From: a virus
Lineage: Duplodnaviria; Heunggongvirae; Uroviricota; Caudoviricetes
DNA: 16,062 nucleotides
Strand: one strand, 5' to 3'
IMG/VR virus record: IMGVR_UViG_2698536355_000012
Coordinates: 1 to 16,062 of that record
Shown: positions 1,751 through 4,962 of the stretch, piece after piece
Layout: every line of letters begins with the position of its first letter
Position numbering within the stretch: position 1 is the stretch's first letter
The notes under the pieces: generated by a model
Databases searched by the model: none
What the model was told of the DNA's origin: nothing
The model's input: only the letters and a program-made list of their open reading frames with translations
Translations under genes and position numbers: made by a program

Positions 1751-2320
1751 TTACTCTTCGGTGCTGGTGGGCACCAGTCGCTGCCAGATAGCAGAAACAT
1801 ATTTGGCCTGGTGGCGGGCGTCGGCCAGCGCGTTATGCACCTCACCATCAAACGGCATATCCCGCTTCGGGTCGAAGCCAATAGCGCGACCGAGGGTCAC
1901 CATCGTGCGCACGTCCTGATCGTTCCAGAATTGCCAGGGGCAAATATGGCCGGCACGCTCGTATGCGCCTCGAATAATGACGTTGTCGAAGTTTGCGCCG
2001 TTGCCCCACACCTTCAAATATTTCGGGTTGTCCGCGTGACGGTTGATGAAGTGGCTCAACTCGGAAAGCGCTGCATCTACAGGCATAGCATCATCAGCGC
2101 AAATCGCTGCTCTGGCTTCCGGGCTTTGCTTCATCCACCAGATGATGGTGTCACCGTCAGGAACCGCGCCTTGTGCCATTGCACTTTCGAGCTGCACGGC
2201 CGTGTAAAACTCTTCGCCCAGCGCGCCGCTCTGCGGGTCAAACAACACGGCACCGATGGAGACAATTGGCGCCTTTGGCTTGTTACCCATGGTTTCGAGG
2301 TCGATCATTAAGTGGTTCAT
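1751..2320 (-). CDS. DEDDh-type 3'-5' exonuclease (DnaQ-like fold)
   Basis: 189 aa. Motifs MIDLETMG (Asp-x-Glu), WGNGANFD and H-N-A-L-A-D-A are consistent with exo I/II/III of DEDDh exonucleases. RBS-like AGGAT upstream of ATG 2320. Confidence 0.75.
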   Translation of the reverse strand: MNHLMIDLETMGNKPKAPIVSIGAVLFDPQSGALGEEFYTAVQLESAMAQGAVPDGDTIIWWMKQSPEARAAICADDAMPVDAALSELSHFINRHADNPKYLKVWGNGANFDNVIIRGAYERAGHICPWQFWNDQDVRTMVTLGRAIGFDPKRDMPFDGEVHNALADARHQAKYVSAIWQRLVPTSTEE

Positions 2321-2865
2321 GCTGATTTATCCTGTTTCTGTGTAGCGGCTATTGCGCATGCTTCTACTGCTTTTTGGTAGATGAGTTTTATTGTCGGCCA
2401 GTCAATGATCTGATCTTCATTCCAGTCGCCGCGCCCATCACAATCACTGCAACCGTCGCCGCCACACTCAGGACAAGTAACGGAACGGGGTATGCTGAAC
2501 TCACCAGATAAAGCACGTTTCGCGCCATTCTCCGCAGTCAGCGTTACAGGCATGATGCAGTATCCATCCGGAATTACCGGATAGTTGCTACAGCGCACTT
2601 CGCCTGTTTTTGATAAAGAATACAGCGCTGGCGCTGTCTGGATCGACAGCTCATCAGCTTTCCGGCGCTGCTGAAGCTCAAGAGTCATGGCTTTGACCAC
2701 TTCAGGCGGTGCGTATGTGTCGTTCAGGTCATCCCACAAATCGCACATCTTTTTGCTGTTATCGGGGTGAACATCGTCATTAGTGCCAGCCAGTGCAGTA
2801 AGTACCTCGTCAGCAGCTTCAATGATTTTTTCCAACTGACTGTCTGTTAGGTTGTTATTGGTCAT
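2317..2865 (-). CDS. Ea22-like modular early protein with C-terminal Cys-rich zinc-ribbon-like motif
   Basis: Start placed at internal ATG 2865 (MTNNNLTDSQLEKI...); the listed ORF 2317..3033 is treated as an upstream run-on. Shares the MTNNNLT N-terminus and an LELQQRRKAD segment with the adjacent gene. C-terminus contains CPECGGDGCSDCDGRGDW. Confidence 0.55.
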   Translation of the reverse strand: MTNNNLTDSQLEKIIEAADEVLTALAGTNDDVHPDNSKKMCDLWDDLNDTYAPPEVVKAMTLELQQRRKADELSIQTAPALYSLSKTGEVRCSNYPVIPDGYCIMPVTLTAENGAKRALSGEFSIPRSVTCPECGGDGCSDCDGRGDWNEDQIIDWPTIKLIYQKAVEACAIAATQKQDKSA

Positions 2866-3142
2866 TTTTAATGTCTCCGGCATGGCAATAGTGCCAGCCC
2901 TCCGGGTGTGTGGTAGTTTTTCCGCAGCGAGGGCAGGTAATTTTGGGGTTTGCAGCTTCCAGTGCCCTTTGATAATCGCGATCGGCATTACGGCGCTGCT
3001 GAAGCTCGCGCAGGGCACAAATAATTTGGTCATACTCCCGCGCGTTACCCTCCCAGCCCTGATGTCGGCAGCGGTTGGCGCACAGCTGCATTTCTTCGGC
3101 GAGGCCGTTCAACTCTTCTTCTGTCAGGTTGTTATTGGTCAT
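2855..3142 (-). CDS. Ea22-like small early protein with Cys/His cluster
   Basis: 95 aa, starts MTNNNLTEEEL, contains RELQQRRNADRD and a CPRCG...H...CH cluster. Strong AGGAGG about 10 nt upstream of ATG 3142. Overlaps the downstream gene by 11 nt. Confidence 0.6.
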   Translation of the reverse strand: MTNNNLTEEELNGLAEEMQLCANRCRHQGWEGNAREYDQIICALRELQQRRNADRDYQRALEAANPKITCPRCGKTTTHPEGWHYCHAGDIKNDQ

Positions 3143-3522
3143 GCTGGCACTCCCTCCTGATACCGTTCGAACCAGAACACCACTGGCGCATTAGTTGGCT
3201 GAACCAGGCCGAATGATTCCGCTGTGCGGTAACTTCTCGACGCCCGGCGCGTCACATCGACCTGAGTTGCGATGCGGCTGCGAAAATCTTCAACAGTGCT
3301 GCACATTTTGAATAGATTGCATGGGATGCAGGCTGGCACCATATTGTCGATGGTGTCGTTTTCAGGTCTGTCCATCACGTACCCCTTGCTGATATTCCTG
3401 CGCACAGCTTCAACGTGATCGGCGTGGAATTTATCGCCAAGCTCACAACCGCAGTAGGCGCAGCGACCTCCGAACTTCATACGTAATTCCGCGCGCTGTT
3501 TTTTCGTGATGGACATACTCAC
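3139..3522 (-). CDS. HNH endonuclease
   Basis: 127 aa with CAYCGCELGDKFHADHVEAV ... N ... CIPCN, the C-x2-C/H-x-D-H/N/C-x2-C arrangement of HNH nucleases. Start is GTG 3522 (overlaps upstream stop) or ATG 3516. Confidence 0.8.
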   Translation of the reverse strand: MSMSITKKQRAELRMKFGGRCAYCGCELGDKFHADHVEAVRRNISKGYVMDRPENDTIDNMVPACIPCNLFKMCSTVEDFRSRIATQVDVTRRASRSYRTAESFGLVQPTNAPVVFWFERYQEGVPA

Positions 3523-4223
3523 TCCCCCACCTTAACGGCAATACCAGCGGCAGCGCGCTCTGCTTTAATGCGTTCGCTTCGCTCCCAAAACCATCTGTGT
3601 AATTCCATTAGCTCTTTATCAACTGGTTCATATTCGCGGTCGAAATAAGCCTGTGCATCTTTCTCGTCTTCGCTGGGTAATTCGCCTGGGCCAAGCAACG
3701 TATTAAAAATCCACGCCATTCCTTTTTTTGCATCACTCGTTGCGCGCCAGTCGATGACCGCGGCCTGCATAACCAGGAGGTTTTTACCAAACAGTAGGTC
3801 AGCCTCTTTAAACCGATTGCGGGCGTATTCGTTTTCGGTTTCCAGCTCGGCGATGCGCCGTTGTGCTTCGGTATATGCCTCCAGCACAACATCCAGCAGA
3901 TCACCGTCCTGTAGCAACTTGCTCAGTTCAGGTTTCCACGCTACGCAGTCATCATCAGGATCCTGCATATTGAACACATAGGTATCGAACGCCCCCATAA
4001 AGCGCCCAAACCCGCCTTTATCATCGACGAGCACCTGCCAGGCGCGCAGGAGAAAGAGCTTTTGGTTGCGGTCCAGATCTGTCCGGGAAAGTTCTTCCGC
4101 AATAAAGCCGATTTCACTGCCGTGCCAACGAGCATCATTACGCTGCGCAGCATAAAAAAGTTTCCAGAAATACTCTGTCTCTTCCTGGTCTGGGCGACAT
4201 TGTCTTAATGTATGAACTGTCAC
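3519..4223 (-). CDS. Hypothetical early-left protein
   Basis: 234 aa ORF, acidic with predicted coiled-coil-like central segment. GTG start 4223 overlaps the stop of the upstream gene (translational coupling). No family recognised. Confidence 0.5.
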   Translation of the reverse strand: MTVHTLRQCRPDQEETEYFWKLFYAAQRNDARWHGSEIGFIAEELSRTDLDRNQKLFLLRAWQVLVDDKGGFGRFMGAFDTYVFNMQDPDDDCVAWKPELSKLLQDGDLLDVVLEAYTEAQRRIAELETENEYARNRFKEADLLFGKNLLVMQAAVIDWRATSDAKKGMAWIFNTLLGPGELPSEDEKDAQAYFDREYEPVDKELMELHRWFWERSERIKAERAAAGIAVKVGE

Positions 4224-4435
4224 GCTGCACGCTCCTTACTAACGCTGCTACTGTTACGCAGGCATTCGATTTCAGCCATAAGCGCTACCCGCTGATCCAT
4301 CAACTCGGTCAGTGCTGTAAAGGTGACGTCGAGCCTTGTCGCCATTTCACGCATTAGCACTGCTGTCGCTGGTGGTAGTCCCGGCACAGCGGCATGCGCC
4401 TCTGTGACAAGTTCTTTCACCTTCAGGCGGCGCAT
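4220..4435 (-). CDS. Hypothetical small protein
   Basis: 71 aa ORF in the same densely packed operon; its start overlaps the end of the HD-domain gene by 13 nt. No motif recognised. Confidence 0.4.
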   Translation of the reverse strand: MRRLKVKELVTEAHAAVPGLPPATAVLMREMATRLDVTFTALTELMDQRVALMAEIECLRNSSSVSKERAA

Positions 4436-4962
4436 TTGCGGATCTCCATCAGCTCGTTAAAGCGATTCATGAAAAGACCAAACGCCTGGCCTGGCCGCAG
4501 CGGGACAATCTGCACGATATCGGAACAGGGGATACCTTCGAGGCAGGGCCACACTGACCCGTCATCGTTCTCGAGGTCACGCCGCTCAGTGGCCAGCATC
4601 ACCAGGTCGGCATACTTGACCACGTCCGTCTGGTGCATCGGGAGGTTGAACTTGCTGCGGATCAGAGCATCCACTTGCGTTTCAATACGGCGATAGTCCG
4701 GCAGCAGGGCTTTAAGCGGCGACGGGATGTCCTGGCAGTAGGCTTCCGCAGCATCGTGCAGCAGCGCTTCCAGGGCAAACTCTGGTGGTACAATCTGGCT
4801 GGCGAGCACAGAGTGCTGGGCGACGCTGTAGAACTCCGGCAGGTGGCCGGCGAAGCGACAGATATTAGAAAGTGCGTTGGCGATATCTTCGATATCAATA
4901 TCGTCAGTGGTGGCGTTGATGTAGTCAAAATGCTTGCCAGAAAGTGTCTGGATATAGCTCAT
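4423..4962 (-). CDS. HD-domain phosphohydrolase, YfdR-like 5'-deoxynucleotidase
   Basis: 179 aa; His ... LLHDAAEAY places an H-D dyad in the expected metal-binding position. GGAGA 9 nt upstream of ATG 4962. Length and gene order match my recollection of E. coli KplE1 yfdR (178 aa). Confidence 0.7.
   Translation of the reverse strand: MSYIQTLSGKHFDYINATTDDIDIEDIANALSNICRFAGHLPEFYSVAQHSVLASQIVPPEFALEALLHDAAEAYCQDIPSPLKALLPDYRRIETQVDALIRSKFNLPMHQTDVVKYADLVMLATERRDLENDDGSVWPCLEGIPCSDIVQIVPLRPGQAFGLFMNRFNELMEIRKCAA

Follow-up and report, generated by a model that had tools for sequence, protein, structure and literature searches.

The early-left operon of a Chi-rich lambdoid prophage without recombination genes of its own

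Introduction

Recombinases occur in only 51% of 275 lambdoid phages, and the other 49% over-represent Chi (Bobay, Touchon and Rocha 2013, PMC3784561). One early-left layout has been public since Salmonella phage ST64B was sequenced; its genes sb30-sb37 follow the order cI, a leader of ~0.8 kb, YfdP, DUF2303, HD protein, small and Ea22-like genes, 3'-5' exonuclease, xis and int. The only member with experimental data is the Escherichia coli K-12 prophage CPS-53, and those data concern DnaA and replication initiation. CPS-53 YfdR binds to domain I of DnaA, and initiation at oriC is blocked when yfdQRS or yfdQRT is present in multicopy, a block that required YfdS or YfdT. The effect belongs to overexpression of a cryptic-prophage cluster whose deletion had no replication phenotype (PMC4776307).

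The locus analyzed here lies in a 16,062-nucleotide stretch of a Caudoviricetes virus (IMG/VR record IMGVR_UViG_2698536355_000012, positions 1 to 16,062), referred to below as the window. Its early-left operon is an ordinary representative of the already known class of Chi-rich lambda-like prophages without their own recombination genes. With the layout public and recombinase-less lambdoids described in 2013, the locus carries little weight as a discovery. It is instead a clean worked example, in which a missing recombination module and a 20-fold Chi excess account for each other.

Results

Extent and gene order of the operon

The region is read as an early-left (PL) operon from the ST64B/CPS-53 type of recombinase-less lambdoid prophage, in which host RecBCD would handle recombination and the operon's core would act on DnaA; this joint reading is given a probability of about 0.7. 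The following features define the operon, together with one gene of the early-right operon:

7206 to 7234, minus strand: PL-like promoter, TTGACC-17-TACATT, with operator-like GGTAAC..GGTACA repeats on both sides
6403 to 6492, minus strand: conserved structured element in the ~850-nt leader, immediately 5' of the yfdP ribosome-binding site
5983 to 6354, minus strand: YfdP-family protein of 123 aa, which opens the operon (phrog_204, E 3e-40)
5099 to 5929, minus strand: YfdQ/DUF2303 protein, 276 aa, core gene (Pfam E 2e-62)
4423 to 4962, minus strand: YfdR-type HD phosphohydrolase, 179 aa, core gene (phrog_318, E 3e-96)
4220 to 4435, minus strand: small protein, 71 aa, core gene that follows the HD gene in relatives (phrog_12248, E 4e-27)
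3519 to 4223, minus strand: Ead/Ea22-like mosaic protein, 234 aa, variable cargo (N-domain 1-128, coiled coil, C-domain ~114-226)
3139 to 3522, minus strand: small HNH endonuclease, 125-127 aa, variable cargo (PF01844; phrog_2118, E 2e-57)
2855 to 3142, minus strand: 95-aa protein, zinc-ribbon-like CxxC motif at its C-terminus, variable cargo
2317 to 2865, minus strand: 182-aa mosaic protein with two CxxCxGxG motifs, variable cargo
1751 to 2320, minus strand: DexA/Rv2179c-like DEDDh 3'-5' exonuclease, 189 aa, conserved final gene before xis (Pfam Rv2179c-like, E 1.7e-74)
1337 to 1744, minus strand: protein with a LexA-type DNA-binding domain and no S24 peptidase domain, 123-135 aa
1131 to 1340, minus strand: excisionase, at the operon end
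1 to 1176, minus strand: tyrosine integrase, at the operon end
12989 to 13402, plus strand: RusA Holliday-junction resolvase, early-right operon (Pfam E 4.8e-17)

All of the open reading frames listed in a preliminary description of the locus are present on the minus strand, and near-identical public contigs, independently gene-called, carry the same set. That description confined the operon to positions 1751-4962. The genes in this range are real, but the operon begins further upstream, at the PL-like promoter (7234-7206) directly downstream of the cI terminator hairpin (7297-7274), which adds YfdP and YfdQ/DUF2303. One frame, annotated as 2317-3033, was too long; its true start at 2865 gives the 182-aa protein. 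Nearly all the genes were rightly called translationally coupled, because stop/start overlaps of 4-13 nt join them at 4435/4423, 4223/4220, 3522/3519, 3142/3139, 2865/2855, 2320/2317 and 1340/1337. An Rfam search of the whole window, including the leader element, returned no family.

Missing recombination genes and Chi excess

Within the 16-kb window, the complete PL operon and the PR operon up to Q were covered, and neither a phage single-strand annealing protein nor a RecBCD inhibitor is encoded there. Searches of every PL-operon product against Pfam, PHROGs and NCBIfam found no RecT, Erf, Rad52, Gam, Abc2 or YqaJ, and phmmer --max against all lambda PL proteins matched only integrase to integrase. 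When profiles of the 71-aa and 234-aa proteins, YfdP and YfdQ were aligned by hhalign with lambda Exo/Bet/Gam and P22 Erf/Arf/Abc1/Abc2, no probability exceeded 0.9%. For a Redβ/RecT annealing protein the family databases and phmmer --max against Bet were negative, and the four profiles gave at most 0.1%; for Gam there was no PF06064 match and hhalign gave at most 0.3%; for P22 Erf and Abc1/Abc2, Pfam was negative and hhalign stayed at or below 0.9%. No 5'-3' exonuclease of the lambda Exo/YqaJ type was found either, the lone exonuclease being a DEDDh 3'-5' enzyme without similarity to lambda Exo by phmmer or hhalign. The initial claim that the operon lacks Red, Erf/Abc and Gam homologues therefore withstood all of these searches, among them the one it had named as potentially refuting, in which the products of 3519-4223 and 4220-4435 reached at most 0.9% as annealing or Gam-like proteins. 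RusA is the sole recombination-related gene of the window.

Chi is distributed across the window as follows:

1445 to 15043, both strands: 14 Chi sites (GCTGGTGG), 11 on plus and 3 on minus
1445, 1763, 4368, 8331, 8568, 10985, 12489, 12962, 13318, 14506, 14907, plus strand: Chi
10623, 10769, 15036, minus strand: Chi

The count of 14 compares with an expectation of 0.69, and none of 200 shuffles reaches it; Markov models of orders 2-5 raise the expectation to 1.7-5.8. No other 8-mer is as frequent in the window: Chi ranks first among 11,443 distinct 8-mers. Most sites (11/14) lie to the right of cI, which fits a concentration of GCTGGTGG between the replication and packaging regions, and the plus-strand majority is oriented for RecBCD entry from the packaging side. 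Comparable densities, 8-16 sites per ~16 kb, are found in ST64B, Flotzy and Klebsiella prophages. The Chi excess argues against the presence of any RecBCD inhibitor. Taken with the missing genes, the Chi statistics suggest that recombination and end protection would be left to host RecBCD-Chi and RecA, with the phage RusA resolving the resulting junctions. The lack of a recombination module had been presented as unusual; given that about half of lambdoids share it and that the window has the matching Chi-rich signature, it is not.

A conserved frame around a hypervariable slot

ST64B, Flotzy, Klebsiella prophages and 38 IMG/VR loci share a common layout: YfdP, YfdQ, YfdR and a small protein, then zero to eight variable genes, then the exonuclease, xis and int. 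In the 38 IMG/VR loci YfdQ is universal (38/38), followed by the HD gene (37/38), the 71-aa protein (35/38) and the exonuclease (32/38). The window has the layout of ST64B sb30-sb37 and of Flotzy, its DUF2303 gene standing between a YfdP-family gene on the promoter side and a YfdR-type HD gene downstream, and in a Klebsiella prophage only YfdP, YfdQ, HD, a 65-aa protein and the exonuclease separate cI from xis. The frame is fixed, with YfdP, YfdQ (DUF2303), the YfdR-type HD protein and the 71-aa protein on the promoter side and the DexA-like exonuclease beside xis-int, while the slot between its ends is hypervariable and holds Ea22-type mosaic genes.

The slot here contains the 234-aa Ead/Ea22-like protein, the HNH nuclease and the two Cys-rich proteins. 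Among 30 representative variable genes from related loci, matches were to Ead_Ea22, DUF551, DksA/TraR and a methylase, and none was to a recombinase. The variable genes would be dispensable accessory cargo, as in the lambda exo-xis region.

The HNH call is sound (PF01844, 23.4 bits against a cutoff of 21.4), though the gene is sporadic, occurring in 1/38 related loci. The 95-aa and 182-aa products had been described as two Ea22-like proteins with Cys clusters: both have the Cys motifs, and the C-terminal half of the 182-aa protein, though not its N-terminus, which is common to DUF551 proteins, matches phage proteins annotated Ea22, but neither reaches Pfam Ead_Ea22. The other two products had been left unassigned. 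This no longer holds for the 234-aa protein, the homologues of whose C-terminal half are named ead/Ea22-like by NCBI, and the 71-aa protein is a conserved core protein. None of the three Ea22-like or unassigned candidates matches the Ead_Ea22 profile (PF13935) at E<=0.1; a few C-half homologues of the 234-aa protein carry PF13935. The AlphaFold2 model of the 234-aa protein is all-helical and of low confidence (pLDDT 51.5). YfdP and the HNH, 71-aa and 182-aa proteins gave no meaningful match in PDB sequence searches.

An anti-defence role, also proposed, finds no support. The lone PADLOC match, "DpdH" on residues 119-214 of the 234-aa protein (E 1.5e-39), looks like a mislabelled model. One paper cites dpdH among genes with an ATPase domain, and in another DpdH/DpdI are treated as equivalent to BrxC. 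The label was rejected because, against this literature, the model spans just 127 positions, homologues of the domain are prophage proteins of ~159 aa with ead/Ea22-like names, and a genome scan yielded only four close relatives.

The core genes and their proposed action on host replication

Window YfdP is 59% identical to K-12 YfdP and 91-96% identical to its ST64B, Flotzy and Klebsiella counterparts, and the identical gene in public contigs is annotated PF27127 YfdP. YfdQ is 55% identical to its K-12 counterpart and matches "YfdQ Protein" in the PDB (9o7m, E 3.6e-40). The HD phosphohydrolase assignment is secure, resting on the phrog_318 match and 66% identity to K-12 YfdR, with the H...HD...D motif readable in both. 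The 71-aa protein is 65-68% identical to those of Klebsiella and Flotzy. By homology to CPS-53 YfdQRST, the core would act on host replication initiation soon after induction, through binding of YfdR to DnaA; BLAST of K-12 YfdS and YfdT against the window proteins detected no similarity.

The position of the operon, which is that of exo-bet-gam, and the 36 YfdQ chains in 9o7m, which suggest a large oligomer, could be taken to mean that a recombination system has gone unrecognised in the Red/Erf slot, formed by the core, with YfdQ a new annealing protein teamed with the exonuclease. This is highly improbable: YfdQ resembles no recombinase in fold or profile, searches with its confident AlphaFold2 model (pLDDT 90.5) finding no annealing-protein fold and no annotated neighbour; DUF2303 co-occurs with RecT and YqaJ in Burkholderia phage JC1; the 3'-5' polarity of the exonuclease is opposite to that of recombination exonucleases; and phages that lack a recombinase of their own typically show just such a strong excess of Chi.

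The five-gene core is widespread: numerous prophages of Klebsiella, Salmonella, Enterobacter, Citrobacter and E. coli carry it, and experiments cover only YfdQ and YfdR. It is conceivable, if doubtful, that its five products (YfdP, YfdQ, YfdR, the 71-aa protein and the exonuclease of DexA type) make up a single functional system, undescribed as such, which lambdoids without a recombinase would typically carry in the Red/Erf slot. Such a system might, for example, halt host replication and act on DNA ends in a way that channels phage DNA towards RecBCD and Chi; alternatively, it might serve defence. Its control might lie with the conserved structured RNA of the leader.

The exonuclease and the HD enzyme

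The assignment of the last frame gene as a DEDDh 3'-5' exonuclease was borne out by a full-length match to PF16473 (249.8 bits, cutoff 27) and by alignment with its closest solved relative, T4 DexA (E 2e-12), in which the catalytic columns D7, E9, D119, H186 and D191 are invariant. Like T4 DexA, the enzyme would trim or degrade DNA 3' ends. Compared with the HREX exonucleases T4 DexA and E. coli EcD, it belongs to the same fold family and keeps the catalytic residues, but it is only 30% identical to DexA, lacks DexA's extra loops, and is only 38% identical (E 3e-39) to an EcD-like 189-aa IMG/VR protein.

This last match raises the possibility of a prophage-borne, EcD-like defence gene whose product breaks down the 5hmC-modified DNA of T-even phages during superinfection. 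The IMG/VR protein matches EcD's published primers at both ends. Ala83 of the window enzyme shares an alignment column with DexA D90 and with A78 in the EcD-like protein, and in EcD this substitution is reported to prevent tetramer formation. An integrase-proximal location is typical of lysogenic-conversion genes. However, the IMG/VR protein is identified as EcD by its primer ends rather than from a deposited sequence. The residues for 5hmC recognition, a Trp and an acidic one, do not align dependably: the alignment around DexA D169 is unreliable, and the window enzyme has Ala there. The exonuclease start overlaps the upstream stop (ATGA) within a repressed PL operon, and a promoter scan found no internal promoter. 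A defence role of this kind is accordingly judged quite unlikely.

The preliminary description called the operon nuclease-rich and proposed a role in host-DNA degradation or nucleotide-pool manipulation; in such a module, dNMPs released by the exonuclease would be dephosphorylated by the HD enzyme. "Nuclease-rich" is not supported, as the exonuclease is the only conserved nuclease and the HD protein is a phosphohydrolase. The module itself has more in its favour: T4 DexA is a host-DNA scavenger (PMC12153337), RefSeq lists K-12 YfdR as a 5'-deoxynucleotidase, PHROG 318 carries the label dNMP phosphatase, and both genes belong to the conserved frame. Against it, YfdR nucleotide affinities are reported to be much below those of YfbR and its function was called elusive (PMC4776307), the HNH gene is sporadic, no conserved endonuclease is present to open the host chromosome, and a temperate, Chi-rich phage is adapted to living alongside host RecBCD rather than to destroying host DNA. 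A dedicated module is therefore rather unlikely, whereas DNA scavenging or nucleotide turnover is a plausible role for the two enzymes. Kinship of the HD protein with the phage T5 dNMP phosphatase (Dmp) was considered but could not be established, no T5-like phage appearing among the matches listed or in name tallies over 286 phage records.

Comparison with known systems

ST64B resembles the window in protein identities of 76-91%, in RusA in the right operon and in Chi richness. It differs in its middle cargo (sb31-sb34, including a DUF262 protein), in lacking the HNH and LexA-domain genes, and in its integrase. CPS-53 (yfdP-yfdQ-yfdR-yfdS-yfdT) has its three homologous genes in the same order, with mosaic small proteins and the excisionase TorI after YfdR; unlike the window, it is degraded, has no DexA-like exonuclease, 71-aa gene, adjacent repressor or PL, and its YfdS and YfdT have no detectable counterpart here. 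In the lambda exo-xis region with its Ead-Ea22 mosaics, as in the window, PL drives a block of small accessory genes that lies close to the integrase gene and shuffles fast, but lambda carries exo-bet-gam upstream, and the window proteins themselves fall below Pfam Ead_Ea22. Like the recombinase-less lambdoids of Bobay and colleagues, which were scored as whole genomes whereas a 16-kb window with simpler background models was used here, the window combines the absence of recombinase, Gam and Abc2 with a strong Chi excess, concentrated rightward of the region for immunity and replication.

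Layout of the window and extent of the early-left operon

The 16 kb window is the int-to-Q portion of a lambda-like prophage, and public assemblies hold near-identical prophages with identical gene calls. Its main features are:

1-1176, minus: integrase gene (int)
1131-1340, minus: xis
1751-2320, minus: DexA-like exonuclease (Exo)
2317-2865, minus: 182-aa protein
2855-3142, minus: 95-aa protein
3139-3522, minus: HNH protein
3519-4223, minus: 234-aa protein
4220-4435, minus: 71-aa protein
4423-4962, minus: YfdR-type HD protein
5099-5929, minus: YfdQ (DUF2303)
5983-6354, minus: YfdP; the ORF chain reaches 6354
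about 950 nt between the ORF chain (6354) and the cI-type repressor: no convincing ORF
7234-7206: PL-like promoter, flanked by operator-like repeats, immediately past the cI terminator
7311-7970, minus: cI-type repressor
plus strand: cro, CII/YmfL-like, replication gene (Phg_2220_C), Dam, 665-aa C5 methylase, RusA, Rha/Ant, DUF968 and Q-like genes

The position of the PL-like promoter indicates an early-left operon running from about 7200 to 1, well beyond the interval first described (1751-4962).

Directly 3' of the replication gene, Dam-type (299 aa) and C5-cytosine (665 aa) DNA methyltransferases lie in tandem with overlapping ends (10130-13019, plus strand), an arrangement kept in the Klebsiella and Flotzy relatives and probably serving self-protection against restriction. 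One public contig bearing the same prophage (L001, 14552-20626) has, immediately next to the prophage integrase, a second integrase together with genes for Psu, Ogr/Delta and AlpA: a tandem insertion of a P4-like satellite. In other assemblies, ordinary chromosomal genes take its place beside the integrase.

Absence of a recombination module

The preliminary description recognized no recombination genes in the operon, and every search supports this. Pfam, PHROGs and NCBIfam gave no match to RecT/Redβ, Erf, Rad52, Gam, Abc2 or YqaJ for any product from PL to int. Unfiltered phmmer against all lambda PL proteins paired only integrase with integrase. Profiles of the 71-aa, 234-aa, YfdP and YfdQ proteins, aligned by hhalign with lambda Exo, Bet and Gam and P22 Erf, Arf, Abc1 and Abc2, reached probabilities of at most 0.9%. 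The preliminary description would have been refuted had either unassigned product (3519-4223, 4220-4435) fallen into an annealing-protein or Gam-like family, and neither did. The solved structure of YfdQ (PDB 9o7m, 'YfdQ Protein') contains 36 chains of a single sequence, which implies a large assembly, and the DUF2303 protein of Burkholderia phage JC1 has been reported as virion-associated.

The earlier domain calls also hold, and with them the observation overall. The product of 1751-2320 is a full-length Rv2179c-like DEDDh exonuclease (E 1.7e-74) whose catalytic residues align without change with those of T4 DexA; 3139-3522 encodes an HNH endonuclease, and 4423-4962 a YfdR-type HD hydrolase with 66% identity to K-12 YfdR. 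Most adjacent genes overlap by 4-13 nt, making the proposed translational coupling plausible. The ORF placed at 2317-3033 had to be shortened, its true start being 2865. Between yfdQ and the HD gene lies a putative 41-aa ORF with a TTG start (4959-5084, minus), whose stop overlaps the HD start; in the same gap, Flotzy has an annotated 30-aa ORF and some IMG/VR relatives have ORFs of 56-67 aa.

A conserved leader element

A conserved structured element occupies 6403-6492 (minus), inside the 6355-7200 leader and immediately 5' of the yfdP ribosome-binding site. Its parts are an outer stem of ~20 bp (ACACAACAGATAAGAGCATC / GGTGCTCTTATCTGTTGTGT), an inner stem (CCGGG/CCCGG) and an apical hairpin that varies; a small hairpin (GGCGG/CCGCC) comes next. 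Compensatory changes affect 4 of the 42 predicted pairs across 15 relatives. Directly 5' of the element, a terminator-like hairpin with a T-run is present in most relatives but not in the window. The element matched no Rfam family. Because an N-like gene is absent, its candidate roles are RNase III cleavage, antitermination and control of translation.

A conserved frame with a variable centre

The frame of YfdP, YfdQ, HD gene, 71-aa gene and exonuclease is common to the window, Salmonella phage ST64B (sb30-sb37) and phage Flotzy. In K. pneumoniae prophages, the cI-xis interval holds only YfdP, YfdQ, the HD gene, a 65-aa gene and the exonuclease. Nearly all of 38 IMG/VR loci, gathered via the conserved leader motif, keep the order YfdP-YfdQ-HD-71aa-[0-8 genes]-Exo-xis-int, with YfdQ in 38/38, HD in 37/38, the 71-aa gene in 35/38 and Exo in 32/38. 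Among 30 representative variable genes, matches were to Ead_Ea22, DUF551, DksA/TraR zinc-finger and DNA-methylase families, and no recombinase was found. This comparison shows an operon whose frame is fixed and whose centre is variable. The label "nuclease-rich" is therefore overstated: the HNH gene is confined to 1 locus out of 38, leaving the exonuclease as the only constant nuclease.

The 234-aa protein is identical (100%) to a protein found on 36 contigs and has no matching ORF in the 38 loci. Its residues 1-128 form a widespread N-domain attached to many differing C-termini, and its C-terminal half is also found in proteins of ~159 aa that NCBI names ead/Ea22-like, a few with PF13935; its predicted structure was of unusably poor quality. 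The Ea22-like label fits best this protein, which had been called unknown. The 182-aa protein is another mosaic, similar to DUF551-type proteins over its first 60 residues and to Ea22-annotated proteins over its C-terminal half. It has no Pfam match, and its residues ~160-176 (CPECGGDGCSDCDGRG) contain the CxxCxGxG motif twice in succession, matching the DnaJ zinc-finger pattern.

Residues 119-214 of the 234-aa protein match the PADLOC model PDLC02890 'DpdH' (127 positions, E 1.5e-39). This identity was rejected, the homologues being prophage ead/Ea22-like proteins. One paper cites dpdH among genes with an ATPase domain, and in another DpdH/DpdI is treated as equivalent to BrxC. On these grounds the model probably bears the wrong label or derives from a prophage gene.

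Between the exonuclease gene and xis, 1337-1744 (minus) encodes a LexA-type DNA-binding domain only (E 1.3e-22) and lacks the S24 self-cleavage domain; its product might imitate LexA without being cleavable. The gene is missing from the ST64B, Flotzy and Klebsiella relatives.

Putative functions of the core

Experimental work on the core is limited to the homologues of CPS-53, a cryptic prophage of E. coli K-12 (PMC4776307). Purified YfdR binds DnaA, with DnaA Phe46 important to the interaction, and moderately inhibits the DnaA-DiaA and DnaA-DnaB interactions (PMC4776307). Multicopy yfdQRS or yfdQRT inhibits initiation at oriC, deletion of the cluster gives no replication phenotype, and the nucleotidase affinities of YfdR are low (PMC4776307).

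The closest solved relative of the window exonuclease is T4 DexA, which scavenges host DNA (PMC12153337). A 2025 study describes EcD, an E. coli DexA homologue that breaks down 5hmC DNA and confers protection from T4 (PMC12153337). An IMG/VR protein matching the EcD primers at both ends shares 38% identity with the window exonuclease, and both carry Ala at the DexA D90 position. An EcD-type defence role against modified (5hmC) phage DNA nevertheless appears unlikely, as the gene sits within the repressed PL operon, coupled to its upstream gene, and the alignment did not confirm the 5hmC-recognition residues. Under the preferred reading, the core would, after induction, interfere with host replication initiation and process DNA 3' ends; the variable genes would serve as accessory cargo, much like those of the lambda exo-xis region (PMC10834534), and recombination would be left to the host.

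Chi sites and comparison with recombinase-less lambdoid phages

Chi (GCTGGTGG) occurs 14 times in the window, against 0.69 expected from dinucleotide shuffles (maximum 4 in 200 shuffles) and 1.7-5.8 under Markov models of order 2-5, and is the commonest of 11,443 distinct 8-mers. Eleven sites are on the plus strand, and 11 lie to the right of cI. By the established rule that Chi is active when RecBCD approaches it from the 3' side, the plus-strand sites are oriented to be read by RecBCD entering from the right (Q/packaging) side. In the ST64B, Flotzy and Klebsiella prophages there are 8-16 sites for every ~16 kb. This signature would be hard to reconcile with a Gam- or Abc2-like inhibitor. RusA (12989-13402) would supply junction resolution.

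Of 275 lambdoid genomes, only 51% have a recombinase; the remainder depend on host functions and carry Chi in strong excess, mostly from the replication origin to the packaging site (Bobay, Touchon and Rocha, PMC3784561). Roles in nucleic-acid turnover, as proposed in the preliminary description, are conceivable, but its premise that lacking a recombination module is unusual was wrong. What novelty remains lies in the five-gene core, which no study has treated as a unit; the operon is otherwise of a known kind, and the window fits the recombinase-less, Chi-rich lambdoid pattern exactly.
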